This document shows, one piece after another, positions 22,169 to 40,280 of a stretch of 41,094 nt of DNA (position 1 is the stretch's first letter; each line of letters opens with the position of its first letter). Where the stretch lies: the IMG/VR virus record IMGVR_UViG_2872152978_000011; one strand, written 5' to 3'. The DNA comes from a virus. Its lineage: Duplodnaviria > Heunggongvirae > Uroviricota > Caudoviricetes. The notes under the pieces were generated by a model that was not told where the DNA came from, did no database searches, and saw only the letters and a program-made list of their open reading frames with translations. Position numbers and translations under genes: made by a program.

Positions 22169-22174
22169 TATTTT

Positions 22175-22567
22175 TCACTGAGTTAGCAGTGTATTTTGCG
22201 TGTTTTCAGGGCGCAGTTCAGGTTCATTCTGCCAGACCCATTTCGTCAGGTCATGTCCCTTAACCTGCTGCCAGTCAACACCGGCAATCAGCCAGTTAAA
22301 CTCGTCGGGAGTGAGGTGCCAGGCAGTGTCATTTGCACGTGGCCAGCGGAAGCTGCCTTTGTGCAGACGGCGGGTACACAACCACACCCCGTGTTTATCC
22401 CACCGGAGAACTTTGATACGCGAACGGGCTTTGTTAACAAAGACGAAGGCGGCTCCCTCATGCCATGTCGACCGGAGTTCATCCTGTATATACTGCGTCA
22501 GTGAGTCGATGCCCCGGCGCATGTCAACAGGTTTAATTGCGATGAAGACATTATCAGGACTGAGCAT
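22175..22567 (-). CDS. IS66-family orf2 (TnpB) of element X
   Basis: 130 aa, alignable by eye with the copy A TnpB (…WLCTRRLHKGSFRWP versus …LCLFTRRLEEGQFIWP). Confidence 0.8.
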   Translation of the reverse strand: MLSPDNVFIAIKPVDMRRGIDSLTQYIQDELRSTWHEGAAFVFVNKARSRIKVLRWDKHGVWLCTRRLHKGSFRWPRANDTAWHLTPDEFNWLIAGVDWQQVKGHDLTKWVWQNEPELRPENTQNTLLTQ

Positions 22568-22671
22568 ATTTGAGTGCCCTGAAGAGTAAGCGTAAACTGA
22601 CCGCCGTATGTAGCCATTAAGCCTGTATTGGTAACGTAGGTGCCCACCTTTTCAACTAGTGGACACCTGTT

Positions 22672-23091
22672 ATGGAACAGAAAGCATTATCTGCAGAACC
22701 CCGCAGATCATTTTCAAATGAGTTTAAACTTCAAATGGTTAAACTGGCTTCACAACCAGGAGCCTCTGTTGCCCGTATTGCCCGGGAACACGATATCAAT
22801 GATAACCTGCTGTTCAAATGGCTCAGGCTCTGGCAGAACGAAGGGCGCATATCGCGGCGTCTTCCGGTAACAACCTCTTCTGACACTGGCGTTGAATTAT
22901 TACCTGTGGAGATAACGCCGGATGAGCCGAAAGAACCGGTGGCTGCTCTTACTCCGTCTTTATCTACTCAGACTACAGTTAGTGCCAGCTCCTGCAAGGT
23001 GGAGTTCCGTCACGGTAACATGACGCTGGAAAATCCTTCACCAGAGCTGCTCACAGTGTTGATCCGTGAACTGACCGGGTGGGGACGATGA
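22672..23091 (+). CDS. IS66-family orf1 (TnpA), copy B
   Basis: Identical protein to 19692-20111. Confidence 0.85.
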   Translation: MEQKALSAEPRRSFSNEFKLQMVKLASQPGASVARIAREHDINDNLLFKWLRLWQNEGRISRRLPVTTSSDTGVELLPVEITPDEPKEPVAALTPSLSTQTTVSASSCKVEFRHGNMTLENPSPELLTVLIRELTGWGR

Positions 23092-23438
23092 TCTCACTCC
23101 CGTCAGGCACCCGCATCTGGCTCGTTGCTGGGATAACCGATATGCGTAAGTCTTTCAACGGGCTGGGTGAACAGGTACAGCATGTGCTGAATGATAATCC
23201 CTTCTCCGGTCACCTGTTCATCTTCCGTGGCCGACGGGGTGACATGATTAAAATCCTGTGGGCTGATGCTGATGGTCTGTGCCTGTTCACCAGACGCCTG
23301 GAGGAAGGCCAGTTTATCTGGCCTGCTGTGCGTGACGGCAAGGTATCCATTACCCGCTCGCAACTGGCAATGCTCCTCGATAAGCTGGACTGGCGTCAGC
23401 CAAAAACATCCCGCCTTAACGCACTGACAATGTTGTAA
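23079..23438 (+). CDS. IS66-family orf2 (TnpB), copy B
   Basis: Identical protein to 19345-19704. Confidence 0.9.
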   Translation: MGTMISLPSGTRIWLVAGITDMRKSFNGLGEQVQHVLNDNPFSGHLFIFRGRRGDMIKILWADADGLCLFTRRLEEGQFIWPAVRDGKVSITRSQLAMLLDKLDWRQPKTSRLNALTML

Positions 23439-23468
23439 AAATGTCATGGCCGGATTATAAAAACGGCC

Positions 23469-25061
23469 ATGAATCAAAAATACCTCATTCGCATTGCAGA
23501 ACTGGAATGCCAGCTCCGTCAGAAAGACCAGCAACTGAGTCTGGTTGAAGAGACGGAGGCCTTCCTGCGCTCTGCACTGGCCCGCGCCGAAGAAAAGATC
23601 GAAGAAGATGAACGGGAAATAGAACATCTGCGGGCTCAGATAGAAAAACTGCGCCGGATGCTGTTCGGTACCCGTTCTGAAAAACTGCGTCGTGAAGTTG
23701 AACAGGCTGAGGCCCTGCTGAAACAACGCGAACAGGACAGTGATCGTTACAGTGGGCGGGAAGACGATCCGCAGGTTCCCCGCCAGTTGCGACAGTCTCG
23801 TCATCGTCGCCCGTTACCGGAGCATCTGCCCCGCGAAATAAATCGCCTGGAGCCAGAAGAAAGCTGTTGCCCGGAGTGTGGCGGTGAGCTGGATTATCTG
23901 GGGGAAGTCAGCGCAGAACAACTGGAACTGGTGAGCAGCGCTCTGAAAGTGATCCGCACAGAACGGGTAAAAAAAGCCTGTACAAAATGTGACTGCATCG
24001 TTGAAGCACCGGCACCATCCCGTCCGATAGAGCGTGGTATCGCGGGCCCGGGGTTACTTGCCCGCGTGTTAACGGGAAAATACTGCGAACACCTGCCACT
24101 GTATCGTCAGAGTGAAATTTTTGCCCGTCAGGGTGTCGAACTGAGCCGTGCATTACTCTCCAACTGGGTTGACGCGTGCTGCCAGTTAATGACGCCGCTG
24201 AATGATGCTCTGTACCGTTATGTGATGAACAGCCGCAAAGTTCACACTGATGACACACCAGTAAAAGTGCTGGCACCGGGCAGGAAGAAGGCGAAAACAG
24301 GATATATCTGGACGTATGTCCGGGATGACAGGAATGCCGGTTCGCCAGAGCCTCCGGCGGTCTGGTTCGCCTACTCACCGGACCATCAGGGTAAACATCC
24401 GGAGCAGCACCTTAGTCCCTTCCGGGGTATCCTGCAGGCAGATGCGTTTAATGGTTACGATCGGCTGTTCAGTGCCGAACGAGAAGGCGGCGCGTTGACG
24501 GAAGCAGGATGCTGGGCTCATGCGCGGCGCAAAGTCCACGATGTATATATCAGTACCAAAAGCGCGACAGCGGAAGAAGCCCTGAAACTAATCGGTGAGC
24601 TGTACGCCATCGAGCACGAAATACGCGGGTTGCCGGTGTCTGAACGCCTGGCGGTCAGGCAAATGCAGAGTAAACCGCTACTGACTTCCCTGTATAAGCT
24701 GATGCAGGAGAAAGAACAGACGTTATCGAAAAAATGCCGTCTGAGAGATGCGTTCCGGTATATCAGGAAGCACTGGGTTGCGTTGTGCAACTTCAGTGAT
24801 GATGGTCTGGCTGAGGCGGATAATAATGCCGCGGAAAGAGCGCTTCGTGCAGTCTGTCTCGGAAAGAAAAACTTTATGTTCTTCGGCAGCGATCACGGTG
24901 GAGAGCGTGGTGCGCTACTGTACGGGCTGATCGGCACCTGCCGACTGAACGGTATCGATCCGGAAGCGTATCTGCGCTATATCCTGAGCGTACTGCCGGA
25001 ATGGCCTTCCAACCGTGTTGACGAACTCCTGCCATGGAACGTAGCACTCACCAATAAATAA
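23469..25061 (+). CDS. IS66-family transposase (orf3/TnpC), copy B
   Basis: Identical 530-aa protein to 17722-19314. Confidence 0.9.
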   Translation: MNQKYLIRIAELECQLRQKDQQLSLVEETEAFLRSALARAEEKIEEDEREIEHLRAQIEKLRRMLFGTRSEKLRREVEQAEALLKQREQDSDRYSGREDDPQVPRQLRQSRHRRPLPEHLPREINRLEPEESCCPECGGELDYLGEVSAEQLELVSSALKVIRTERVKKACTKCDCIVEAPAPSRPIERGIAGPGLLARVLTGKYCEHLPLYRQSEIFARQGVELSRALLSNWVDACCQLMTPLNDALYRYVMNSRKVHTDDTPVKVLAPGRKKAKTGYIWTYVRDDRNAGSPEPPAVWFAYSPDHQGKHPEQHLSPFRGILQADAFNGYDRLFSAEREGGALTEAGCWAHARRKVHDVYISTKSATAEEALKLIGELYAIEHEIRGLPVSERLAVRQMQSKPLLTSLYKLMQEKEQTLSKKCRLRDAFRYIRKHWVALCNFSDDGLAEADNNAAERALRAVCLGKKNFMFFGSDHGGERGALLYGLIGTCRLNGIDPEAYLRYILSVLPEWPSNRVDELLPWNVALTNK

Positions 25062-25288
25062 GCGTCAATACGGTGCTCCGTTGACGCTTACCCTGAAGAC
25101 ATCGGTAAGTTGTGACGGCTGACAGCACATCCGTACTCCACCGGGAAGGAAGAGCGTGACTGGCTCATTCGTGACGGGCTGTGGTACATCAGCATGCAGT
25201 GGTGGCGCAATATGAACGTAAGCGTACAGCCTGAACCGTCTGGTCAGAATCTGACGAATTAAACAAAGTGGTGTCCACCAAATAAGTA

Positions 25289-25690
25289 GTGGGAACCAAA
25301 GTGTCAGATATGCAGAAAAATGTGAATCCCGGCAGGCGAAAAGGCTGCCCTAATTATCCTCCCGAATTTAAACAGCAGCTCGTTGCTGCCTCCTGTGAAC
25401 CCGGGATATCCATCTCAAAACTTGCTCTTGAAAATGGCATTAACGCCAATCTGTTGTTCAAATGGCGACAACAATGGCGCGAGGGAAAGCTGCTATTACC
25501 TTCTTCAGAGAGCCCCCAGCTACTTCCTGTGACTCTCGATGCAGCTGCCGAACAGCCAGAATCGCTCGCAGAGGATCCGGAAACCCTCAGTATCAGCTGT
25601 GAGGTAACGTTCCGGCACGGGACGCTCCGCTTCAATGGCAATGTCAGCGAAAAGCTCCTGACTCTGCTGATACAGGAACTGAAGCGATGA
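25289..25690 (+). CDS. IS66-family orf1 (TnpA) of element Y
   Basis: 133 aa HTH protein (...GISISKLALENGINANLLFKWRQQW...). Confidence 0.8.
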   Translation: MGTKVSDMQKNVNPGRRKGCPNYPPEFKQQLVAASCEPGISISKLALENGINANLLFKWRQQWREGKLLLPSSESPQLLPVTLDAAAEQPESLAEDPETLSISCEVTFRHGTLRFNGNVSEKLLTLLIQELKR

Positions 25691-26034
25691 TCCCGTTACC
25701 TTCCGGGACCAAAATTTGGCTGGTTGCCGGTATCACCGATATGAGAAATGGCTTCAACGGCCTGGCGGCAAAGGTGCAGACGACGCTGAAAGACGATCCG
25801 ATGTCAGGTCACGTTTTTATCTTCCGTGGGCGTAATGGCAGTCAGGTAAAGCTCCTCTGGTCTACCGGCGATGGACTGTGTCTGCTGACCAAACGGCTGG
25901 AGCGCGGCCGCTTCGCCTGGCCGTCAGCCCGGGATGGCAAAGTGTTCCTCACACCGGCACAGCTGGCGATGCTCCTTGAAGGTATCGACTGGCGGCAGCC
26001 TAAAAGACTGCTTACGTCCCTGACTATGTTGTAA
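25687..26034 (+). CDS. IS66-family orf2 (TnpB) of element Y
   Basis: MIPLPSGTKIWLVAGITDMRNGFNGL...; start overlaps the orf1 stop. Confidence 0.9.
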   Translation: MIPLPSGTKIWLVAGITDMRNGFNGLAAKVQTTLKDDPMSGHVFIFRGRNGSQVKLLWSTGDGLCLLTKRLERGRFAWPSARDGKVFLTPAQLAMLLEGIDWRQPKRLLTSLTML

Positions 26035-26082
26035 GCCTCTTTATCCTGGTCGACGCTGAATGAGCCTGGTAATATACCCGGT

Positions 26083-27621
26083 ATGAGCAGCTCACTTCCT
26101 GACGATATCAATGCACTGAAACGTCTCCTTGCCGAACAGGAGGCGCTGAACCGTGCCCTGCTGGAAAAGCTGAACGAGCGTGAACGCGAAATAGACCATC
26201 TGCAGGCACAGCTGGATAAGCTGCGCCGGATGAACTTCGGCAGCCGCTCCGAAAAAGTCTCCCGTCGTATCGCACAGATGGAAGCTGACCTGAAGGCACT
26301 TCAGAAAGAAAGTGATACCCTTACCGGTCGGGTTGACGACCCGGCCGTGCAGCGCCCGCTGCGTCAAACCCGCACCCGCAAACCGTTCCCCGAATCACTC
26401 CCCCGCGATGAAAAACGGCTGCTGCCGGCAGCGTCATGCTGCCCGGAATGTGGAGGCTCACTGAGCTATCCGGGTGAGGATGCCGCCGAACAGCTGGAGT
26501 TGATGCGCAGCGTCTTCCGGGTTATCCGGACTGTACGTGAAAAGCATGCCTGTACTCAGTGCGATGCCATCGTGCAGGCCCCCGCGCCTTCACGGCCCAT
26601 CGAGCGGGGTATCGCAGGACCGGGGCTGCTGGCCCGCGTGCTGATCTCAAAGTATGCAGAGCACACCCCGCTGTACCGCCAGTCTGAAATGTACGGCCGC
26701 CAGGGCGTGGAGCTGAGTCGTTCACTGCTGTCGGGCTGGGTGGATGCATGCTGCCGGCTACTGTCACCGCTGGAAGAAGCGCTTCAGGATTATGTGCTGA
26801 CTGACGGTAAGCTCCATGCTGATGACACGCCTGTCCCGGTGCTGTTGCCAGGCAATAAGAAAACGAAGACCGGGCGGTTATGGACCTACGTTCGTGACGA
26901 CCGTAACGCCGGGTCAACGCTGGCGCCGGCGGTGTGGTTCGCTTACAGCCCGGACAGAAAAGGCATCCATCCGCAGACCCATCTTGCGGGGTTCAGTGGT
27001 GTACTGCAGGCGGATGCATACGCCGGGTTCAACGAGCTGTACCGGGATGGCCGGATAACGGAAGCCGCCTGTTGGGCTCACGCCCGCCGTAAAATCCACG
27101 ATGTGCACGTTCGCACCCCGTCAGCCCTGACGGAGGAAGCGCTGAAACGGATCGGCGAACTGTACGCCATCGAGGCAGAGATAAGGGGAATGACGGCGGA
27201 GCAGCGCCTTGCCGAACGTCAGTTGAAAACGAAACCGCTGCTGAAATCCCTGGAAAGCTGGCTGCGTGAAAAGATGAAAACCCTGTCGCGACACTCAGAA
27301 CTGGCGAAAGCGTTCGCATACGCCCTGAACCAGTGGCCGGCGCTGACGTACTATGCAGATGATGGCCGGGCTGAGGCGGACAATAACATCGCTGAAAATG
27401 CGTTGCGGATGGTCAGTCTGGGCCGCAAAAACTACCTGTTCTTCGGTTCGGATCATGGAGGAGAGCGGGGAGCGCTGCTGTACAGCCTGATCGGGACGTG
27501 CAAACTGAACGGAGTGGAGCCAGAAAGCTACCTCCGCTATGTACTTGACGTCATAGCCGACTGGCCGATAAACCGGGTCGGCGAACTGCTCCCCTGGCGC
27601 GTAGCACTGCCGACTGAATAA
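26083..27621 (+). CDS. IS66-family transposase (orf3/TnpC) of element Y, 512 aa
   Basis: CPECGG...CTQCD zinc ribbon plus DDE region; homologous to the other two TnpC proteins. Confidence 0.9.
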
Positions 27622-27666
27622 CACATCCCCGTCAATACGGTTCTTGCTGCACGCTTACATATGAAC

Positions 27667-27846
27667 GGGAAGAACGGTCGGTTCATTTGCCCGGCGTTCA
27701 GCTTTTGCGACATCCTGCGGCCATTCGCGAAGTGATGTGAAGGGAATATCGTTGAGTTCACAGTATTGCTGACGTGTAAGACCACTGGCGCGCCAGGCAG
27801 CAACGTGCTGCCTTTTCTGTTCAATGGTCCATCGGGGTTTTGACAT
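27667..27846 (-). pseudogene. 5' part of orf1 (TnpA-like HTH) of element X, interrupted by element Y
   Basis: MSKPRWTIEQKRQHVAAWRASGLTRQQYCELNDIPFTSLREW...; the reading frame runs into the terminal repeat of Y. Confidence 0.5.
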
Positions 27847-27959
27847 CGATTATCTCCGGTAAGTTGGTGAATGGATGTCGGTAATACTAACTGACCGAAG
27901 ATCCCTGTGAAGATGACTTCCCCGTAACGACACGATTTGGTGTGGTTATTGCCACCTCC

Positions 27960-28361
27960 TTAATTCGTGTACGTGATCTGGTACGTGATTTCCGCCATCG
28001 CCCAGGTGGCCATCTCATTATCACGTTGATAGTTAAAACCGAGTGGGATCATGGTGTCGATGAGTCCGGAAAGCACCGGAATATCCTTCATGGCCGGAAA
28101 TATGGTGTTCTCCATCCACGTATCCAGCTCAGAATCCGGCGCCTGTGCACGGACGAAAACGGCAATATGCAGAACAGCCTGCCAGTCGTCCTCATCCGTC
28201 ATTTTTCCGGTGTACTGCGCATCACTCAGCCACACCGCCACGGCGGGCAGTTCCTGCGCATCAATAAATGCCGGAAGCCCGTCAAAAAGCACGACATTCC
28301 CCCCGCATTCGCCCTTCAGGCTTGCCAGTACTGCCTGGCGGATTTGTGTGTGCCTGTTCAT
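27960..28361 (-). CDS. U: Tail terminator protein U
   Basis: 133 aa, MNRHTQIRQAVLASLKGECGGNVVLFDGLPAFIDAQELPAVAVWLSDAQYTG... resembles lambda U; synteny Z-U-V. Confidence 0.85.
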   Translation of the reverse strand: MNRHTQIRQAVLASLKGECGGNVVLFDGLPAFIDAQELPAVAVWLSDAQYTGKMTDEDDWQAVLHIAVFVRAQAPDSELDTWMENTIFPAMKDIPVLSGLIDTMIPLGFNYQRDNEMATWAMAEITYQITYTN

Positions 28362-28945
28362 CCCAAATGTATCCTCAGTTGCTGTTTCAGGGCATACCCC
28401 AGCTGTTTCGGCATTTCCGCGGCAATGATGCGGTCGCGGGCATCCTCAAATGCCTGTGTCAGCGGTCCGGCCAGCGGAATTTTCACAACCTCCACGGGCA
28501 GACGATTTTTTCTGGGCCGCCCCTTACTGTCCTTTCCTGTTTCAAAACACGCTTCAGGAAGACGCCTGAGAACATGCCAGCGACCATTCGCCAGCTGCTG
28601 GATAAACGCACCACGAAAAAAGTATTTCCCCACCTTCAGTCCGTCACCGGCACGCCGGCATGTTGTGCCAAGCTTAATGGCGGGCAGATTGCCCCGGTTA
28701 ACACGGATACGGGCATACATTTTTCCTGCCGGACTGGCTTTAAATACCCGGACGCGCTGACGCACCAGTTTCAGGGGGCCCCCCTTCACCTGGTTATCTC
28801 CCACAACGGTATTCCTGGCGACCTGCCGGGTGGCAACCGAGACAACTTTTGCAGCAACCCGGTTTACTGCCCATGCGCTGGCCTGCGGCACCATACGGGT
28901 ATCAAGACTGTTCAGATTGCGGATGGCATTCTCAAGCACCCTCAT
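28358..28945 (-). CDS. Z: Tail completion protein Z (assigned mainly by synteny and size)
   Basis: 195-aa ORF between FII and U, overlapping both; sequence identity not recalled. Confidence 0.65.
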   Translation of the reverse strand: MRVLENAIRNLNSLDTRMVPQASAWAVNRVAAKVVSVATRQVARNTVVGDNQVKGGPLKLVRQRVRVFKASPAGKMYARIRVNRGNLPAIKLGTTCRRAGDGLKVGKYFFRGAFIQQLANGRWHVLRRLPEACFETGKDSKGRPRKNRLPVEVVKIPLAGPLTQAFEDARDRIIAAEMPKQLGYALKQQLRIHLG

Positions 28946-29300
28946 AATATCCCCCTGCCCTTACGTTTCCTGCTCCTTCACGCCGCAACCGGATATAACT
29001 ACATCCGCCGTCATCAGGAGTAATACGATCCACGCTGAAAGACTCCCGGCCAATCATCAGCGAATCATTGCGACACAGCTGTAAAATATCTGCCGTTTTC
29101 ACAAACAGGGATGGTAAAGAGTCTTCAATACGCACACCGCCGGCTACCAGAGAAATACTTTCAGGATCGTCAAAAACGCCGGAAATCCGGTGTCCTTTTA
29201 ACTGGCCTGATGTAATGACTGCAGTAATGCCCATATTGCGAATAATGGCCCTGTCTGCGAGATCAAGCGCGGCATCAAACAGATTATCGAAATCAGCCAC
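28932..29300 (-). CDS. FII: Head-tail joining protein FII
   Basis: MADFDNLFDAALDLADRAIIRNMGITAVITSG...GVFDDPESISLV...SLPSLFVKT... matches lambda FII. Confidence 0.85.
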   Translation of the reverse strand: MADFDNLFDAALDLADRAIIRNMGITAVITSGQLKGHRISGVFDDPESISLVAGGVRIEDSLPSLFVKTADILQLCRNDSLMIGRESFSVDRITPDDGGCSYIRLRREGAGNVRAGGYYEGA

Positions 29301-29311
29301 AATCCCCCCTG

Positions 29312-29695
29312 CTACTGCATTTTTACCAGGTCATCTTTTACCAGACTGGTGGCCATGCCGGCAGGCACGCGAAACACCGTTTCCGGCAGAACCAGTTTCA
29401 CTGGCTTATCCTGTGTGGCGTGAAGCGCGTCAATATGCAGCGTCGTCCGTGCCACCACCCTGACCAGCTCATCCGTATTCTGAATCATCCTCTCCGGCGG
29501 AACTGCCTCCCCGTTATTTTCCTGCCCGGTAAGCACACTTGCCTGGTTGTCAGTGCCATCCACACCACCAAGCTCCTCTTCCAGCTCTGCCACACGCTGT
29601 GCGATATCTGCCGCGCTTCCCGACATATCAGGCTCACGCCCCAGCAATTCTGACAGCTCTTTCAGACGTTTCAGATTCTCGTCTTTCTTTGCCAT
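29312..29695 (-). CDS. FI: DNA packaging/head assembly protein FI
   Basis: From the internal start MAKKDENLKRLKELSELLGREPDMSGS...HIDALHATQDKPVKLVLPETVFRVPAGMA... (lambda FI-like). The upstream head genes are absent; IS4 begins at 29736. Confidence 0.8.
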   Translation of the reverse strand: MAKKDENLKRLKELSELLGREPDMSGSAADIAQRVAELEEELGGVDGTDNQASVLTGQENNGEAVPPERMIQNTDELVRVVARTTLHIDALHATQDKPVKLVLPETVFRVPAGMATSLVKDDLVKMQ

Positions 29696-29735
29696 ATTTC
29701 TTTCCGGTTCAGTAAAAAACGGGGGCATACTGCCC

Positions 29736-31160
29736 TAATGCCAGTCAGTTAAGCAACTGACTGGCTCTTTTTCGGGGCTGTGGGGTATTTCCAGGGCCTC
29801 TCCTTTACCACTATCGGGAAGGCCCTTCCCCTTCTCGTCGGTAATTTCACAAGTTGTCCCATACTTGCAAGATCGCGCATCAGCTCCGGTATACGTCCCG
29901 GTGAAGCGCCCTGCAATGTCATCAGCATTCTCATCACCATTCCGCATGATTCTGAGAAACTCAGTTGATTCGGCCAGTAACCTTTCAGATGTTCCGCCAT
30001 TTTAATCATCTGATATCTCACCAGATTATAAGCCAGTAAGACACCCCACAGCTCTTGCTCCACAAGCTCCGGCTTTTTACTTCTCAGCGTCAGCCTGCTC
30101 AGTTGCATCGTCTGTTTTATCTCCCTGTATCCCAGTTCAATTTCCCAGCGATGACTGTACAGATCCGCCATTTCTCCTCCGGGGAAGCGCATGGCGTCCG
30201 TCATCGACGTCAGCAGATGGCAGACTTTTCCTTTGCGCGTCACGGTCAGCAGGCGGGCTGTCACTTCATTTCCCAGTCCCGGCCACTTTTTTCGTGCCTG
30301 CGGGCTGGTTTTCAGCTTCACCAGATGATCGCCTTTACCCAGTTTTCTGAGCTCTTCATATTGCGCTCCCTTTCTGAGAGGTATCATCCAGTGGCGGTGT
30401 TCTCCCGCCAGGCTCCAGGCATTTAACAGTCCCAGTGAGTAATAACCTTTATCCATTAACGTCAGAGTGTTATCGCCGGTTTGTTCTATAAGTTGCTCAG
30501 CAAGCTCATTTTCGCTGTTCTTCATCGTGCCGAAGGCTGCAGCCGTCAGCAGATGGCTGGTCAGTTCCATCTGGCAGACCATTTTGACCTGCGGGTAGAG
30601 CGCCGGGTTCCCGGCATGTGTCTGGCGGGGGAAGGCTGCATCGTTCTCTGGTGTATCCGGTGTGCGCCAGAACACACCATCGATGGCCAGCAGGGTCAGG
30701 CCGCACCAGTGCGGATGCGGCGTGGCGTTATGCCAGAGCTGCGCTGTTTTCGTGAACACGCGGCGGACAGCCTCACTTCCCAGGCGCTGGCGGGCCTGAA
30801 TAACGGCACTGGGGCAACGAAGGGGCGATTGCCCGGCAGCATGATGTCCAGGCGATTCACAATCTGGTGAAGAGGTTCTTTACGCTCAAGCGCCATGCCA
30901 ACAATACACCAGACCATCATTTCGAGGGGAAGACGGCGCTTGCGTAGCGTTACAGTACCTGATTCGGCAAGGCAACGAGAGATGAGTTCGGGGTCGAGGT
31001 AATCCCCCAGAGAAGTCAGTGGGTTACGCAGAGAATCGTAACGGGATACCAGATCAAGAGCCTGTCCAATGTGCATAAAAAAATCCGGAAACAAGTGAGC
31101 GTTTCCGGATTCTTACACAGCCACTGGATCGGTCAACTGATCCTTAACTGATCGGCATTA
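29736..31160 (-). mobile_element. IS4 (1425 bp here) with inactivated transposase
   Basis: Terminal repeats TAATGCCAGTCAGTTAAGC (29736) and, reverse-complemented, TAATGCCGATCAGTTAAGG (ending 31160); no matching target duplication in the flanks. Confidence 0.9.
29749..31076 (-). pseudogene. IS4 transposase, frameshifted
   Basis: N-terminal part (MHIGQALDLVSRYDSLRNPLTSLGDYL... in ORF 30696-31094) and C-terminal part (ORF 29749-30759) are in different frames; the break is around 30760-30820 (my best guess 30808-30814). Confidence 0.85.
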
Positions 31161-31915
31161 CTGACTGGAACCCCTCTTTATATTTGCACTTTTCCGCTGA
31201 ACGATCGCGTCCGGCGGTGGAGCTGCTTGCCAGAGTGCCGCTGGAAAATGTCGAATATGTCGCCGATCTTGGCTGTGGCCCAGGTAACAGCACCGCCCTT
31301 CTACAACAACGTTGGCCTGCGGCCAGGATAACAGGCATCGACTCGTCTCCGGCGATGATTGCTGAAGCGCGCAGTGCTTTGCCAGACTGCCAGTTCGTGG
31401 AAGCAGACATCCGCAACTGGCAACCGGTACAGGCACTCGATCTGATTTTTGCTAATGCCTCACTGCAATGGCTGCCTGACCACTACGAATTGTTTCCTCA
31501 CTTGGTTTCTTTACTTAATCCGCAGGGCGTGCTGGCAGTACAGATGCCAGATAACTGGCTGGAGCCGACCCATGTGCTCATGCGCGAAGTTGCCTGGGAA
31601 CAAAACTACCCGGATCGCGGGCGTGAGCCGTTGGCTGGCGTTCATGCTTACTACGATATTTTGAGCGAAGCCGGATGTGAGGTCGATATCTGGCGAACCA
31701 CCTACTATCACCAGATGCCGTCGCACCAGGCGATTATCGATTGGGTGACCGCCACTGGATTACGTCCGTGGTTACAGGATCTGACCGAGAGCGAACAGCA
31801 GCTTTTTCTTAAGCGCTACCATCAGATGCTGGAAGAGCAGTATCCACTGCAAGAGAACGGACAGATACTGCTGGCATTTCCGCGTCTTTTTATTGTTGCC
31901 CGGCGTATGGAGTAA
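31161..31915 (+). pseudogene. tam: Trans-aconitate 2-methyltransferase gene lacking its start codon (IS4 junction)
   Basis: The frame reads (T)[47 protein letters not shown]... (SAM-methyltransferase motif) starting directly at the IS4 end; the annotated TTG at 31184 is an internal Leu codon. Confidence 0.8.
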
Positions 31916-31918
31916 ATA

Positions 31919-32833
31919 TCACGTCAGCTGGTAATGACGATCGGGAAGAATTTTTGCTGGAATTTCGGCTTCATCGTTCATCTGTAAGAGGTCAATTTCA
32001 ATAGCGTTGCAGATGGCATCCAGCGGTAAATCATTGTTTTCAGTACCGAACGGATCTTCCAGTTCTTCCGCCAGACAATCCAGCGAAATAAAAGTGTAGG
32101 AAATCAGCACAGAGATAAAAGGCGTCATGTAATGCAGGTCCACGACCAGCGCGAACGGCAGCATGATACAAAACAGATAAACAGTACGATGCAAAATCAG
32201 GGTGTAGGCAAAGGGAATTGGCGTATAGGCAATGCGCTCGCATCCTGCCAGGACCGCTGAAATATCATTAAGCCGATCGTTGAGGCTAATAAACAGGATT
32301 TCTGAAAGCTGCCCATTGCGGCGCTGAACCGCCAACCACTCCCCCATTATTAACAAGATACGGTTAGCTGGAGAGTTCGAAGCCAGTACAGGCTGAAGAT
32401 CTTCAGTCTTGAGATAATGAGCCAGCACTTCCGCCTGTGGCTGTTTGCGTAATGTCATGCGTAAACAGTGGGCGAAGGCGATTTGCAGCCTGGCAAACTC
32501 CCTTACACTTGCCGAATCCGGCAATGTCGTTTTTACCTCACGTAGTAACGACCGTGAGGCAATCATCAACTGTCCCCAAAGTTTTCGCGCTTCAACGTAA
32601 CGGGCGTACCCGGCATTATTACGAAAACCAAGAAAAATGGCGATGGCGACACCGAGAATGCTGAACGGTGCGAGGGTGAATTTGATGCCCAGATGCGTGT
32701 ACCAGGGCAGCATGAAAATAACAGCGATAGAAAAGAGAAAATTGAGTAGTAAGCGCGAGGATATCTTGGATAATACTGAGCCGTGCCAGACAAAAATACG
32801 GCGCAGCCAGTGTTGTTGTGGACGAACAATCAT
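31919..32833 (-). CDS. yneE: Bestrophin-like UPF0187 inner-membrane protein
   Basis: 304 aa from the internal Met (MIVRPQQHWLRRIFVWHGSVLSKI...); convergent with tam, as in the tam-yneE-uxaB arrangement I recall for E. coli K-12. Confidence 0.75.
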   Translation of the reverse strand: MIVRPQQHWLRRIFVWHGSVLSKISSRLLLNFLFSIAVIFMLPWYTHLGIKFTLAPFSILGVAIAIFLGFRNNAGYARYVEARKLWGQLMIASRSLLREVKTTLPDSASVREFARLQIAFAHCLRMTLRKQPQAEVLAHYLKTEDLQPVLASNSPANRILLIMGEWLAVQRRNGQLSEILFISLNDRLNDISAVLAGCERIAYTPIPFAYTLILHRTVYLFCIMLPFALVVDLHYMTPFISVLISYTFISLDCLAEELEDPFGTENNDLPLDAICNAIEIDLLQMNDEAEIPAKILPDRHYQLT

Positions 32834-33029
32834 GGTTATCTTCAGGCGTGGAAAAGTCGCCCTATTAAACGTGATTACGATCACATTCTCAAGACGCTAC
32901 TTACAAATTACCTACAAGCTTACAACATTAACAGGCGCTGCATGTGGCACCTGTTAATGATAAAGGTATATAGGATGTTGTAACTAATATAGTGAAATAA
33001 GAAACCCGGTCGAAACCGGGTTCAGAGTA

Positions 33030-33938
33030 TTAGCACAACGGGCGTACAGCTTCGCGCATCCCTTTTTCAAGAATCGCATCCAGGTCATTAGCAACCTGCT
33101 CGACCAGACCAGGCACTTGCGTCAGGTCCTGCTCCCAGTGGTCTTTTTCTGCCAAAACAATCGCTACCAGTTCCGGGGTGCCGATAACACGGTCACGATG
33201 CTGGCTCCAGAGTTGCTGATAACGTTCCAGCCAGTGTGCATCGTCCTGTACCGGATATGTTTCTCCGTTACGCTCACCGCGATAGAAGGCAATCAATGCC
33301 GTTAATGCGAAAGTAAGGCGCGCCGGAAGTGTGCCGTTTGCCTTCTGCCCTGCCAGCAGCTGCGGCAGGATGCGGGTGCGGAACTTGGTCATACCGTTGA
33401 GCGCGATAGACAGCAGCTGATGCTTAATGTACGGGTTACGGAAACGCCCGGTGACTGCACTGGCGAAAGATTCCAGTTCATCACGAGGCAAATCCAGTAC
33501 CTGAATAATTTCTTCGTAGATGGCTTTTTCAACGAATGCGCAAATTTCAGCATCGTTCATCGCTTCACCTACGGTATCCAGCCCTGCCTGGAACGCCACC
33601 GGCACCAGCGCGGTGTGCGCACCGTTGAGGATTGCCACTTTGCGTTCTTTATACGGTTTAATATCGTCAACAATCAGCACATTGAGCGGATATTTGTCCA
33701 GGCGCAGCTCAGTCGCTAAGGATTTCGGCCCCTGAATCACAAACAGGTAAAAGTGTTCAGCGGTGTCGAGAAAACCATCGTGATAACCCAGTTCTTCTTC
33801 CAGTTTAGCCACTTCACCACCCCGGTAGCTGTCGGTTTTGCGCGTCAGCTTAGGCAGAGTGACGGACGTCACATTACCCACTTCGTTTTCACCATCCACA
33901 AACAGCGTAAAAAAGCGAAGATGTTTTGGCACAGCCAT
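33030..33938 (-). pseudogene. uxaB: Chimeric ORF: P2-like tail tube (FII) N-terminal ~41 codons fused in frame to the 3' ~260 codons of uxaB (altronate oxidoreductase)
   Basis: N-terminus [41 protein letters not shown] resembles P2 FII (MALPRKLKYLNLF...[12 protein letters not shown]); from ...[29 protein letters not shown]... to the stop it is UxaB C-terminal sequence. Junction near 33811-33819. Confidence 0.8.
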
Positions 33939-35122
33939 CAGGCACCTCCCAGCACCGCAAATGCGGGTTCAAAGTATTCATCAGTAAACGTCTGGTAAAG
34001 CTCCATGTCTTCCAGTGGCGGAACGGGCGTATATTTGTAGCGAATACGCACACGTCCCTGACGTAAATCCGTGGTGCTGTTATCCACCACGTCATACCAG
34101 CACTCCGCGCCAATCAGTTTCCCGGCAGTCACCAGTGAATCCAGTTTTGCCCTGATGGCACTGATAACATCCTTCACATTCGCAGGCGTCAGTGGACTGT
34201 CGATGGTTTCAAACTGCGCTTCCGCAATTGAATCAGCCAGCACCTGTGCGGTTCGGGTATACACCTCAAAGATGTAGGCGTTCGTTTCCGGTGTGCGGTT
34301 ACCCCAGAAGCGGACCCCGTTGCGACGAATAATGGTCGTGATTTCTTTGTTGTTGAGGCTGTTGGCATCGCTGTCTTCGGCCTGCAACGACCAGAACACA
34401 TGCCTCGACATCCCCAGCACATTTTTAACCGGAACGTTGGACAGCGATTTGTTCCATCCCTGTTCATGGTCAATGTACGCACGAAGGCCGCACGCATAGG
34501 CAGGCGCGGGGAACGTTTCGTTTTTGCCATTTTTCGGGTTGTAGGCGATGAAGTCCGGCCATAAGAGCATCACCTCACGTTCGTTGAATTTCTGGCGGTA
34601 GGTAATTGCCTCGGCCATCGTGTTACAGCCATGACATGAGGCATACACAAACGCGCGCAGTTTATCTGCAATCACGCACAGGGATTTTGTTACCGCCTCC
34701 GTGTCCAGCTCCGGCGCGGCCAGAATACGCGGACGGTATCCGATGCTTTCATCCTGCTCTGCAACAAGCAGCGCATACATCCCCATATAGCTGCCGTCAT
34801 CCTCAGAACCACCGATAACCAGTTGATCCTGCGTTTTTCCGTCTTCTTCTTTGTGTTCAGCCACGCGAACGACGATCACCTTTGTGCTCACCTGGTCTGC
34901 GATGGCCTTAAGCGCACGATAAAGCGTCCCCGTTGTCCCGCATTTTCCCAGCACGTCATTGACGCGGGTCAGCAGTGTGGGCTTGTTCAGCGGGAACAGC
35001 TTCGCGTCCGCATCATCCGCCGTTGCCACGATACCGATAACGCTGGAATCAACATCGTTAATCGCTGTTACCAGGTCGGTATTCTCCGTAACACGGGCAC
35101 CATGAAAACGAGTTTCACTCAT
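33938..35122 (-). CDS. P2-like contractile tail sheath protein (FI)
   Basis: 394 aa; alignable by eye with P2 FI (…[30 protein letters not shown]..., ...[11 protein letters not shown]..., ...[10 protein letters not shown]...). Confidence 0.85.
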
Positions 35123-35279
35123 AGCTTCAGCCCCTTGTATCCGTTAAATGATTCAGCAACAATCATCACCCACCACGCGCGTAATCTCACCCCTGCGCCG
35201 TTCTCCCGCCACGGCGACAACAAAAAGCAGTACCCCCCTCCGCACGCACATGCGACCATGCCGCACAGGGAGGGAGCAG

Positions 35280-36389
35280 ATGACCGACACCACCATGCAA
35301 TTGCTCAGTCAGGGCACGGCCCCCGTGAAAATGCCGGATTTTGATATTCTCTCGGAGGGTAAAACGCTGTCAGGCGTGGCGGAGCGCCTGATGAGCCTGT
35401 AACTGACCGACAACCGGGGATTTGAGGCGGACCAGCTCACCATCACGCTGGATGATGCGGATGGTCAGTTGCAGCTACCGCCACGGGGCGCGCGTCTGAC
35501 GGTTCTCATTGGCTGGAAAGGGGAACCGCTGACAGAAAAAGGCACTTACATTGTTGATGAAATCGCTCACGAAGGACCGCCGGACAGGCTGACTGTTTCA
35601 GCCAGAAGCGCAGATTTTCGGGATGAATTTAACGTTAAACGTGAGGTGTCCTGGCATGATGTGACCGTTGAGCGTGTGGTATCCGCCATCGCTCATCGGT
35701 ACGGTCTGAAACCGCAAATCAGCGAAATGCTGATGGATATCGAAATCGACCACGCCGACCAGACCGAAGAAAGCGACATGTCCTTTCTTACGCGCATGGC
35801 GGAAATGCTGGGAGCAATCGCCACGGTAAAAAGCGGCAATCTGTTATTCATCATGCCAGGTGGTGGCGTGAACGCACAGGGGCAGCCGTTGCCCTCGTTC
35901 GCCATTACACGCAGCAGCGGCGATCGCCATCAGTTCCGCATTGCTGACCGCGAGGCGTATACGGGGGTACGCGCCTACTGGCTTGATCTTAATTACGGGA
36001 AAAAGAAAAAAGTCAGCGTGAAACGCCGCAAACCGCCAAAACCCAAAAAGGAGAAAAGCAGCAGTCGGGAAGGCGACTATATGGAAGGTGCGGAAGGCAA
36101 CGTGTTTGTGTTACGCAAGACTTATCAGAACGAGCAGGCAGCAAGACGCGCAGCGGCGGCAAAGTGGCAGCAGCTACAACGCGGAGCCGCATCATTCTCC
36201 ATCACGCTGGCGCGTGGTCGTGCAGAACTCTATCCCGAAATGCATGGCACAGTGACAGGCTTTAAAAGCGAGATTGATTATCAGGACTGGATTATTGCAA
36301 AAGCCGAGCACACCATTGATAACAGCGGCTTTACCACGCAGCTTGAACTTGAAGCAAAAATCCCGGAATGGATAGCAGAAACAGAATAA
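35280..36389 (+). pseudogene. P2-like tail protein D (late control gene D family) with an in-frame ochre codon
   Basis: ...LTDNRGFEADQLTITLDDADGQLQLPPRGARLTVLIGWKGEPL... and a C-terminus matching P2 D; the same frame upstream (ORF 35148-35402) ends in TAA at 35400-35402, immediately before LTDNRGF. The proposed start (ATG about 35280) is uncertain. Confidence 0.75.
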
Positions 36390-36637
36390 ATCTCTTAAAA
36401 ATATTATTTTTGAGATGTGCTTCTACACTGACAGTAAGAACAAAAGATAATGTATCAGCCCACTAGATGTCAGAGGTTGGGGCATCAACCAGATGCTAAC
36501 AATAATACGGATGTTTTTCCCACATGACAGAGGAAGTCAAGTATAATCTTCACAGTCCATCCCGTCCAAGGGAATATGACTCAATAGTAAAAGTTCCAGT
36601 TTAGTTAGTAGACCCACACTTTATAGAAGAGTAATTC

Positions 36638-36928
36638 ATGATTGGACAATTTTTAAGTGCAACAGAGATTTTAGCAAAGAACTATGTTCGTAATAAAATG
36701 GTTAAAAATCCATTTTATTCGAATTTAAAATGGAATTTTATTGAAAAAAACATCATAAGATTAACATCCTCACCGGTTAAATCAGTACTTTGCATATCAG
36801 CTTTTTCATTTGTACTACTTTATGTTGGATATTTAAACGAATTATTTATAAAAAATAATCTTTTACATTATTTCCCGTTTAGGCATTCATTAACCGAATG
36901 GCAAACAACCATTTTAAGTGGCCGGTAA
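36638..36928 (+). CDS. Hypothetical protein, AT-rich, with a hydrophobic segment; 3' end runs into IS1
   Basis: 96-aa ORF whose stop codon lies inside the IS1 terminal repeat; contains VLCISAFSFVLLYVGYL; no family recognised. Confidence 0.3.
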   Translation: MIGQFLSATEILAKNYVRNKMVKNPFYSNLKWNFIEKNIIRLTSSPVKSVLCISAFSFVLLYVGYLNELFIKNNLLHYFPFRHSLTEWQTTILSGR

Positions 36929-36938
36929 TGACTCCAAC

Positions 36939-37442
36939 TTACTGATAGTGTTTTATGTTCAGATAATGCCCGATGACCTTGTCATGCAGCTCCACCGATT
37001 TTGAGAACGACAGTGACTTCCGTCCCAGCCTTGCCAGATGTTGTCTCAGATTCAGATTATGTCGCTCAATGCGCTGAGTGTAACGCTTGCTGATAACGTG
37101 CAGCTTTCCCTTCAGGCGTGATTCATACAGCGGCCAGCCATCCGTCATCCATACCACGACCTCAAAGGCCGACAGCAGGCTCAGAAGACGCTCCAGTGTG
37201 GCCAGAGTGCGTTCACCGAAGACGTGCGCCACAACCGTCCTCCGTATCCTGTCATACGCGTAAAACAGCCAGCGCTGACGTGATTTAGCACCGACGTAGC
37301 CCCACTGTTCGTCCATTTCAGCGCAGACAATCACATCACTGCCCGGTTGTATGCGCGAGGTTACTGACTGCGGCCTGAGTTTTTTAAGTGACGTAAAACC
37401 GTGTTGAGGCCAACGCCCATAATGCGTGCACTGGCGCGACAT
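36939..37442 (-). CDS. insB: IS1 InsB reading frame
   Basis: 167 aa, identical to 1720-2223. Confidence 0.9.
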
Positions 37443-37636
37443 CCGACGCCATTCATGGCCATATCAATGATTTTCTGGTGCGTACCGGGCTGAGAGGCGG
37501 TGTAAGTGAACTGTAGTTGCCATGTTTTACGGCAATGAGAGCAGAGATAGCGCTGATGTCCGGCAGTGCTTTTGCCGTTACGCACCACGCCTTCAGTAGC
37601 GGAGCAGGAAGGACATCTGATGGAAATGGAAGCCAC
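37361..37636 (-). CDS. insA: IS1 InsA
   Basis: 91 aa, near-identical to 2142-2417. Confidence 0.95.
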
Positions 37637-37700
37637 GCAAGCACCTTAAAATCACCATCATACACTAAATCAGTAAGTTGGCAGCATTACCATAAATGCG

Positions 37701-37928
37701 TTGACTGACATGCGTATATGCACATGTCTTTATCTGACATCAAGAATCAATACTTCTGACAAACTAATGACACATTACATTAAACTTATTTTAGAGGGTA
37801 AACTTATTGACCAAACCGGTGGATATGAAACTCCCACTGAAGAAATTGATAATGCAAGCCAACTAATCAAGATATTAATTAGAATCTGCCTGTGGACATG
37901 GTCTGAAAATATGGAGCACAATGGGTAG
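37701..37928 (+). CDS. Hypothetical ORF fragment (75 aa), AT-rich; begins at the IS1 junction and is in frame with the next ORF across a single TAG
   Basis: Reading frame opens immediately after the IS1 end; stop TAG at 37926-37928 is directly followed by the ATG at 37929 in the same frame. Confidence 0.3.
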   Translation: MTDMRICTCLYLTSRINTSDKLMTHYIKLILEGKLIDQTGGYETPTEEIDNASQLIKILIRICLWTWSENMEHNG

Positions 37929-39032
37929 ATGAATAGTTTAGCAAGGCGTTTACGTGACTATGATAAAACAGACATGGTGATGGGCAAAGTTTACAGTAAT
38001 GTTTTTGACTGTGGATTTATTGATATGGAACAATCATGGATTCAGCTATTATTAATTTTTTCTAACAAGAACGATAGCGTATCAAAAGAAATAAAAGAAG
38101 CAATAGAAAACAACTATATAACATATCGTGAGAAGCAACGACTCATTGGAGTATTATCAAAAATTTGTAACTCCATCGAATACACTAAAATCAAGCTGAC
38201 TTTAACATTGGACGATCTCCAAACAAAAAAAGAAAACTTAAGAAAGTTGCTTCAAGAGCATATTAACATGCTAAAGAAAGATCTTGATATGAGACTTCAG
38301 GATGCTGCCATAGATGTACATCGACTAGATAGCACTGCACGTAAAACATCAGAACATCTTCGTAAACGCATCAAGAAAACGCTCCCTCTTTCACTTTTCA
38401 AATCTATTGATTTTAAGCAGGCTAGCGATTGTTTCACAAAACATAAGATATCTATTAAGATAGATAAAGAACCGTATGCCGAAGGAATAGAATCCATCCC
38501 TTATATCAATGAAGGTGATATTCAAGCAGACTTAATTCTCAAGGACATCCAGAGAATAATACTTTCAAATTTATTTAGCACTGGCTGTTCGCAACATACC
38601 GTAATAGAAGATTTCAATATGTTGATTGATCACATAAAATCATCTGCTGACTTGGCTGGCAAACTGGTTCTTGTGATGAGTAAAGAGATCTTTCAGCAAT
38701 ATAATCGTATGCTTTTCGATAATCCCAACCTCAGAGAACTAATGAGAAAAAATGATGATGGCTCTATGAACATAACTACTGAATCCGGTACCCGTAAGGT
38801 TTACTTCTTACCATTTGTTAATCAACCATTTTCTCTTGTGGTAAAGGATAACTACTTCACTAAATTAATTATTAGAGAATATGATAATAATAAGTTAGTA
38901 AATGTCACTTCAGAGAATATCAAAAGTGACTCAGATAAATTCAAGCTAACTCTTAACTATGAGTTGAATATAGTATTTGAAGGAAACGCTGATTTAAAAA
39001 TAGCTCACTCGCAAAGAGTGACATCAGAATAA
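37929..39032 (+). CDS. Hypothetical protein (367 aa), AT-rich, K/E/N/I-rich with a predicted coiled-coil region; function unknown
   Basis: Long uninterrupted ORF in a visibly AT-rich segment between P2-like D and ogr; no recognisable catalytic motif or family. Confidence 0.5.
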   Translation: MNSLARRLRDYDKTDMVMGKVYSNVFDCGFIDMEQSWIQLLLIFSNKNDSVSKEIKEAIENNYITYREKQRLIGVLSKICNSIEYTKIKLTLTLDDLQTKKENLRKLLQEHINMLKKDLDMRLQDAAIDVHRLDSTARKTSEHLRKRIKKTLPLSLFKSIDFKQASDCFTKHKISIKIDKEPYAEGIESIPYINEGDIQADLILKDIQRIILSNLFSTGCSQHTVIEDFNMLIDHIKSSADLAGKLVLVMSKEIFQQYNRMLFDNPNLRELMRKNDDGSMNITTESGTRKVYFLPFVNQPFSLVVKDNYFTKLIIREYDNNKLVNVTSENIKSDSDKFKLTLNYELNIVFEGNADLKIAHSQRVTSE

Positions 39033-39167
39033 TATCTTTGACGGCGCTCCTTAGAGTGCCGTTCGTTTATTAACTAATGCTAAAAATCATTATATAGAGA
39101 AAGTCATGTTTAAATCTTAGAGAATACAACCTAGAATAGTGCAAGCACTACAATAAGAGAGGTCGCT

Positions 39168-39363
39168 ATGTTCCGTTGTCCGCTTTGTGGCGCATCTGCC
39201 CGTATCCGCACCAGTCGTCCGGAAAATGATTCAAACACCGTGAGACAAAAGTATTATCAGTGTAACAATCTAGAATGCGGCGTATGTTTCTCAACACTGG
39301 AAGCCTTCCACAAATTCACTTCAAAGCACGCCTCCCCCATTCACTCATCAGAGGGCATCCCGT
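39168..39363 (+). pseudogene. ogr: Ogr/Delta-family zinc-finger late-gene activator, interrupted near codon 65 by IS2
   Basis: MFRCPLCGASARIRTSRPENDSNTVRQKYYQCNNLECGVCFSTLEAF... resembles P2 Ogr (MFHCPLCQHAAHARTSRY...YHQCQNVNC...); the frame continues after the IS2 at 40699-40763. Confidence 0.7.
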
Positions 39364-39374
39364 TGGATTTGCCC

Positions 39375-40280
39375 CTATATTTCCAGACATCTGTTATCAC
39401 TTAACCCATTACAAGCCCGCTGCCGCAGATATTCCCGTGGCGAGCGATAACCCAGCGCACTATGCGGATGCCATTCGTTATAATGCTCGAACGCCTCTGC
39501 AAGGTTCTTTGCTGCCGTTAACCCGTCTGGTTTGGGCATGATACTGATGTAGTCACGCTTTATCGTTTTCACGAAGCTCTCTGCTATTCCGTTACTCTCC
39601 GGACTCCGCACCGCCGTGTTCTTCGGTTCAAGTCCCAACATCCGGGCGAACTGGCGTGTTTCATTAGCCCGGTAGCATGAACCATTATCCGTCAGCCACT
39701 CCACTGGAGACGACGGAAGATCGTTGCCGAAGCGGCGTTCCACCGCTCCCAGCATGACGTCCTGTACTGTTTCACTGTTGAAGCCGCCGGTAGTCACCGC
39801 CCAGTGCAGTGCCTCACGATCACAGCAGTCCAGCGCGAACGTGACACGCAGTCTCTCTCCGTTATCACAGCAGAACTCGAACCCGTCAGAGCACCATCGC
39901 TGATTGCTTTCTTTCACGGCCACTCTGCCTGTATGTGCCCGTTTCGATGGCGGTACAGCAGGTTTTCGCTCAAGCAACAGCGCATTCTGGCGCATGATCC
40001 GGTAAACACGTTTGGCATTGATCGCAGGCATACCATCAAGTTCTGCCTGTCTGCGAAGCAGCGCCCATACCCGACGATAACCATACGTGGGCAGCTCTCC
40101 GATAACATGGTGTATACGGAGAAGCACATCCGTATCATCAGTGTGACGACTGCGGCGGCCATCCATCCAGTCATCGGTTCGTCTGAGAATGACGTGCAAC
40201 TGCGCACGCGACACCCGGAGACAACGGCTGACTAAGCTTACTCCCCATCCCCGGGCAATAAGGGCGCGTGCGCTATCCAC
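39375..40280 (-). CDS. insD: IS2 transposase OrfB (InsD)
   Basis: 301 aa, IS3-family DDE transposase matching IS2 InsD. Confidence 0.9.

Follow-up and report, generated by a model that had tools for sequence, protein, structure and literature searches.

Two protein families are the closest relatives of the gene described here. UxaB of E. coli (b1521) is a tagaturonate/altronate reductase of the long-chain mannitol dehydrogenase family, and the enzymes of this family need an N-terminal Rossmann domain for NAD(H). The tail tube protein of phage P88 (Xuanwuvirus, Peduoviridae) is a member of the P2 FII family (PF04985 / TIGR01611). The late promoters of P2-type phages need the activator Ogr, whose site has the form TGT-N12-ACA. 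Illegitimate recombination which depends on short homology and is independent of RecA is an established process in enterobacteria. It is also well documented that genes were inactivated by deletion and rearrangement in the evolution of Shigella (PMC7373316; PMC8072062), and S. dysenteriae is described as the most metabolically reduced species of the group, with many genes deleted (Hawkey et al. 2020, PMC7373316). The data of Hawkey et al. concern serotype 1, and uxa, galacturonate and hexuronate are not mentioned there (PMC7373316). Literature searches on uxaB together with Shigella and on the genome CP026840 returned nothing relevant, and no paper mentioning the uxaB event presented below was found.

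The window, that is the whole stretch of 41,094 nucleotides which was analysed, contains in its ORF list a minus-strand ORF of 302 aa with an ATG start (33030..33938). It is concluded with high confidence that this ORF is a fusion pseudogene, formed when the tail tube gene of a prophage was joined to uxaB at short homology and free of any IS element, and that neither parental function is to be expected of it. The coordinates of the ORF and of the features around it are collected in Table 1.

Table 1. Features of the fusion locus, in window coordinates
Feature	Position	Strand	Evidence or remark
Native uxaB intrinsic terminator, hairpin then T-run	33002..33023	-	
Chimeric ORF, 302 aa, native uxaB stop codon included	33030..33938	-	tube 1-41 :: UxaB 223-483
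uxaB 3' segment, UxaB residues 223-483 and stop	33030..33814	-	98.1% to K-12
Crossover: TG dinucleotide common to both parents, exact microhomology	33815..33816	-	alignment, megablast end-points
Imperfect homology patch, 11/15 bases, tube gene against uxaB (GCTACCGGGGTGGTG against GCTATCCGCGTGATG)	33815..33829	-	reading frames coincide
Tail-tube (FII-like) 5' segment, codons 1-41	33817..33938	-	40/41 aa identical to phage P88 tube protein
GGAGG ribosome-binding site, 6 nt 5' of the chimera ATG, within the sheath gene end	33945..33949	-	read directly
Tail sheath gene, intact, 394 aa, first in operon	33938..35122	-	389/394 identical to P88
Sheath/D divergent intergenic (late promoter) region, 157 bp	35123..35279	.	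154/157 identical to functional phage P88
Gene D pseudogene, premature stop at codon 41 (35400-35402; S41 in P88)	35280..36389	+	
ogr late-activator gene, cut after codon 65 of 86 by IS2	39168..39363	+	IS2 at 39364-40693, 5-bp target duplication
tam, native uxaB neighbour	31157-31915	+	
yneE, native uxaB neighbour	31919-32833	-	

Both parents can be recognised in the DNA as well as in the protein. Of the first 124 nt of the ORF, 123 are those of an intact tube gene from an E. coli prophage; of the last 787 nt, 769 agree with an intact E. coli uxaB. Among the Pfam profiles, Phage_tube (PF04985) is matched by aa 4-44 (E 9.7e-9; score 35.7 bits, cut-off 22.4) and Mannitol_dh_C (PF08125) by aa 92-289 (E 2.7e-58), and together with the DNA identities to both parents these matches exclude a resemblance by chance. 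The in-frame chimera of tail tube and UxaB that had been proposed in a preliminary description of this DNA is confirmed on the same grounds. The roughly 41 N-terminal residues, described there as similar to P2 FII, are neither a spurious match nor native UxaB sequence, and their phage source can be named more precisely as P88-like (Xuanwuvirus). The remainder, residues 42-302, corresponds to UxaB E223-C483, beginning at the residues that had been named and running to the native uxaB stop.

What is left of each parent is incomplete. Only profile positions 1-42 of 165 are matched in PF04985, which falls short of a full-length tube fold of about 170 aa, and the score with TIGR01611 (phage major tail tube) is 33.1 bits against a cut-off of 102.75. 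On the UxaB side, positions 1-189 of the 190 in Mannitol_dh_C are covered, so the C-terminal helical substrate-binding domain is present, while of the Rossmann NAD(H)-binding domain (PF01232) there remain the last 34 of 199 profile positions (166-199), with 15.7 bits below the cut-off of 27; the NAD-binding part is missing, as had been stated. Among PDB structures, the first 43 residues of the ORF pair with residues 1-43 of the R2-pyocin tube (3J9Q_S), and the only part of Pseudomonas mannitol 2-dehydrogenase (1LJ8) that aa 45-233 match is residues 243-429. With 41 of 170 tube residues and 261 of 483 UxaB residues left, both parent genes are destroyed, in line with the earlier claim; the C-terminal part of UxaB is there, and the share kept is 54% and not the two-thirds once estimated.

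The junction was mapped in a three-way alignment, in which the window was set against the uxaB of L001 and the tube gene of L002, both of them intact. The switch between the parents is seamless: tube-specific bases are read through 33817 and uxaB-specific bases from 33814, within the interval of about 33811-33819 suggested before, and the microhomology that was looked for there consists of the TG at 33816-33815. When 5,426 complete E. coli genomes were compared by megablast, uxaB homology extended from the left edge of the query to window position 33829, and the prophage match ran from 33815 on, with tube, sheath and gpD annotated in more than 1,100 genomes. According to the alignment the join is collinear, lies on one strand and holds neither filler nor IS element, and both parents are intact elsewhere.

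Such a junction has the appearance of a scar left by deletion-type illegitimate recombination at very short homology, a mechanism to which the scar itself points. It may be proposed that in a lineage of S. dysenteriae other than type 1 illegitimate recombination joined codon 41 of the tube gene to codon 223 of uxaB, that short homology and no IS element was used, and that the crossover fell in the shared TG of the 11/15 patch. On this view the tube gene came from a P88-like prophage, of the P2 family, that stood between btuC and ihfA. In the event nt 1-665 of uxaB, nt 125-513 of the tube gene, the remaining prophage and any chromosome between them would have been lost from the locus. The fusion gene still has the ribosome-binding site of the phage and its TGATG link to the sheath gene, and at its other end the stop codon and terminator of uxaB. 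BLAST with uxaB nt 1-665, tube nt 125-513 and the E-T-U block found no match, either in the window or among the S. dysenteriae loci that were fetched.

The local signals for translation are those of the phage. The stop codon of the sheath gene (33940-33938) shares one base with the ATG of the chimera (33938-33936), which gives TGATG, and the intact prophage and P88 have exactly this arrangement. The translational coupling noted in the preliminary description is thus kept, with TGATG in place of the ATGA that was given there, and with GGAGG upstream of the ATG the phage translation start can rightly be called intact. A scan for sigma-70 promoters found 4 sites, a number at chance level (expected 2.3±1.2), and among these transcription signals the uxaB terminator alone is meaningful.

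The phage DNA in the window shows 96-97% nucleotide identity to P88 and its relatives and is 99.7% identical to the prophage of E. coli ETEC4088, a strain which carries a complete P88-like prophage of about 38 kb between btuC and ihfA. The layout D(+)/sheath(-)/tube(-) is common to the window, P88 and the ETEC4088 prophage. An inversion within the prophage was considered for the divergence of D and sheath and was ruled out, since P88 and its relatives share this order and the 157-bp intergenic region. In the S. dysenteriae genome CP026840.1 the right end of the remnant continues into ogr, hok, ihfA and pheT, and because ihfA and pheT are reached, the phage side stands at its native site. About 7 kb of phage DNA is left, and the E/T/U, head, lysis, replication and integrase genes are absent at the locus. 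Judged from its sequence, the prophage is a dead remnant: the tube gene is cut at codon 41, a nonsense codon ends D early, IS2 divides ogr, and one deletion is linked to IS1.

Several smaller observations belong to this remnant. A 306-aa ORF which starts from TTG at 35469 is a mere downstream remainder of gene D. The zinc-finger part of ogr is kept and is joined to sequence from the IS2 end. A large cargo gene of the prophage has lost some 1.49 kb, in whose place an IS1 stands at about 36916-37692, apparently the mark of an IS1-associated deletion; in E. coli ETEC4088 this gene is annotated as an 'MFS transporter' of 1039 aa, and the missing stretch corresponds to L002 12110-13601. When the DNA upstream of the sheath gene was inspected by eye for an Ogr site of the P2 type, only TGT-N12-AGA was seen, at 35219-35202, and it was given no weight.

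The chromosomal flank, uxaB' with yneE and tam, is collinear with E. coli, where the intact uxaB adjoins these two genes. In comparison with K-12, the uxaB remnant shows 12 synonymous and 3 nonsynonymous changes and the intact yneE shows 11 and 2. Relaxed constraint in the remnant was sought against yneE and none was seen (3/12 versus 2/11 nonsynonymous to synonymous), and this lack of excess decay fits a recent event. The IS4 at 29749-31160, to the left of tam, abuts that gene in such a way that its first two codons are changed (M1I, S2T), and the IS4 transposase is broken into ORFs of 336 and 132 aa, as compared to 448 aa in strain CDC 74-1112.

How many steps led to the fusion is a separate matter. 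The two breakpoints correspond in K-12 to about 1,610,015 and 1,795,200 and are therefore about 185 kb apart. The interval presumably contains tyrS, ribE and other essential genes, so that a K-12-like ancestor would not survive the loss of the whole stretch in one deletion. Gene order is disturbed as well. The gene ydfI, which in K-12 stands right of uxaB, is found here left of tam-yneE-uxaB' in the same orientation. Left of ydfI, CP026840.1 has the order ydfZ-rspR-ydfG-dcp-IS1-mgtT-IS-gapC'-cybB-ydcA-hokB-trg, in which IS elements join mgtT to genes from about 1.49 Mb of K-12, and the K-12 block at 1.610-1.622 Mb (dgcF, glsB, sad, marRAB, eamA, ydeE) is absent from its usual place left of ydfI. 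The missing 5' half of uxaB was sought leftward from ydfI and does not lie within 10 kb. The K-12 distance with its essential genes and the synteny broken by IS elements imply that earlier rearrangements preceded the final join or that there were several steps; the region was therefore remodelled by IS-mediated rearrangements, either ahead of the final join or at about the same time.

A multi-step rearrangement in place of a deletion in situ is accordingly given an even chance. An IS4-bounded tam-yneE-uxaB' fragment may, for example, have moved beside the prophage remnant, or successive IS-mediated inversions may have been followed by a small deletion. Such a history would agree with the uxaB side, which is native for only about 2.7 kb before IS4 replaces the lsr operon of E. 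coli, with the changed side of ydfI, with the dgcF-to-ydeE block being out of place, and with the essential genes which the 185 kb in K-12 would presumably take in. The junction itself speaks against it: since it is collinear, on the same strand and clear of IS sequence, the final step would still be a deletion-type illegitimate join. The number of steps concerns history only and leaves the identity of the ORF unchanged. The deletion that had been suggested as the origin is thus upheld for the type of the junction, while one simple deletion is unproven with parents so far apart in K-12.

As regards function, no tagaturonate reductase activity is expected of the ORF, because the Rossmann NAD(H) domain is lost, and no tube polymerisation, because about 76% of the tube fold is missing. 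Transcription of the fusion operon would depend on the late promoter of the phage, and its expression is doubtful, the activator gene ogr being interrupted by IS2. To judge by its composition, the ORF most likely does nothing, and neither parental function would be expected. It can be imagined that the fusion protein is expressed and was selected for a new role, in that superinfection by a P2/P88-like phage supplies Ogr and the chimera caps or poisons tail-tube assembly; the chimera would then be an accidental anti-phage decoy. The promoter region (154/157 to P88), the sheath gene, the ribosome-binding site and the TGATG coupling are all intact, and every carrier examined has the ORF with the same sequence. 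Such identity, however, is what a young clonal lineage would show, and the flanks are likewise 99.9-100% identical. Selection is not required to explain the open frame, since one join out of three would be in frame by chance. The resident ogr is interrupted, gene D has a nonsense mutation, and 41 tube residues with a helical domain deprived of its Rossmann partner are unlikely to fold productively. A second, independent occurrence of such a fusion was not found. A selected role is on balance very improbable, and a non-functional pseudogene is the reading preferred here.

The fusion belongs to one host lineage. Window positions 25030-41094 are 100% identical to S. dysenteriae CP026840.1, and the window as a whole corresponds to positions 4433378-4474471 of that record; the IpaH effector gene and the IS1, IS2, IS4 and IS66 copies in the window also point to Shigella. 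A database entry with precisely this 302-aa sequence bears the name "tagaturonate reductase [Shigella dysenteriae]", and the protein is indexed in 62 assembly-collection blocks. Among the carrier contigs that were read are some from a closed genome, from drafts at NCBI and from Logan assemblies made independently from short reads; those with a name are S. dysenteriae, and the DNA of the ORF is identical in 10 of 10 fetched carriers. The carrier CDC 74-1112 is ST252 of the ST148 complex, distinct from the serotype-1 strain Sd197 (ST146). No junction-spanning sequence was found by megablast in the 5,426 complete E. coli genomes. An exact scan of a species-representative genome collection with the junction 40-mer CCGACAGCTACCGGGGTGGTGAAGTGGCTAAACTGGAAGA gave 0 hits, a result uninformative on Shigella because that collection probably holds no separate representatives of Shigella lineages. 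The junction, which the preliminary description had suggested looking for in other genomes as a lineage marker, is present in many S. dysenteriae assemblies, and the 40-mer is a clean candidate marker of the non-type-1 S. dysenteriae lineage which includes CDC 74-1112 (ST252) and CP026840.1.

Two further explanations have next to no probability. A chimeric contig, for which nothing more than the general risk of IS-rich genomes can be cited, is excluded because one and the same junction, on identical DNA, was recovered from a closed genome, from several NCBI drafts and, independently, from Logan short-read assemblies, where the contigs that carry it are 5.8 kb long and have IS copies at both ends. 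Equally negligible is the view that the phage integrated site-specifically into uxaB or carries a piece of it as cargo: phage and host DNA do adjoin directly, but the breakpoint lies in the middle of the tube structural gene and not at an attachment site, the right end of the prophage is at its usual btuC/ihfA site, P88-type phages are without uxaB sequence, and the uxaB side runs on into the chromosomal neighbours yneE and tam.

Other parts of the window show further features. An IpaH-family E3 ligase effector gene is present at 3077-4540 on the plus strand (NCBIfam IpaH_Shig domain, E 2.7e-170), with an IS1 at 1720-2223. The IpaH gene stands at the end of a lambdoid prophage inserted at the Qin/ydfJ site beside ydfI; the product called in CP026840.1 has only 374 aa and may be 5'-truncated. 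The lambda-type tail tip gene J, at 7310-10788 on the minus strand, is divided into two ORFs of 791 aa (J 1-782) and 368 aa (J 792-1163), so this lambdoid prophage is decaying too. Three copies of the IS66 family lie within 17722-27621, among them an inverted pair (17722-19314 minus and 23469-25061 plus). In strain GCA_002968215.1 the arrangement is different, with IS4 and IS66 directly adjoining the tail genes, which indicates IS66-mediated structural polymorphism among close relatives.

The deposited name of the protein deserves a comment. With NCBIfam NF002969 (tagaturonate reductase) the chimera scores 392.3 bits against a cut-off of 359, the intact UxaB reaching 811, and the match of the chimera is confined to profile positions 220-482 of 482. 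The database name arises because the C-terminal half alone clears this cut-off, and function is not thereby shown; automated metabolic reconstructions would wrongly credit the lineage with a step of the galacturonate pathway. Protein clustering at 90% identity hides lineage-specific fragments of this kind, as the chimera itself fell inside the UxaB cluster. The same cluster also lists YifB-family Mg-chelatase-like ATPases (506 aa), an apparent artefact of clustering. The main value of the locus is practical, as a lineage marker and a caveat for annotation, and no new biological question is opened by it.

When the locus is set beside the known systems, ORF residues 1-41 are like the P88 tail tube protein at 40 of 41 positions, and in both cases TGATG makes a 1-nt overlap with the end of the sheath gene; the ORF differs in keeping 41 of 170 residues, and it cannot be a tube subunit. 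With E. coli UxaB it shares residues 42-302 (about 98% to K-12) and beside them the native stop, terminator and neighbours, and it differs in that UxaB residues 1-222 with the Rossmann NAD(H)-binding domain are gone. The junction resembles the products of short-homology-dependent, RecA-independent illegitimate recombination in enterobacteria, having 2 bp of exact homology in a patch of 11/15 and no mobile-element sequence. The fusion is ordinary Shigella genome decay and a new instance of documented gene loss. It has in common with the reductive evolution of Shigella (PMC7373316; PMC8072062) that a core E. coli catabolic gene was lost in an IS-rich, highly rearranged genome. Most of the conserved pseudogenes of Hawkey et al. 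2020 (PMC7373316) are interrupted by IS elements, whereas here an IS-free microhomology join lies in frame with a phage gene, a tidy case of IS-independent, microhomology-mediated gene loss where IS-driven loss dominates.
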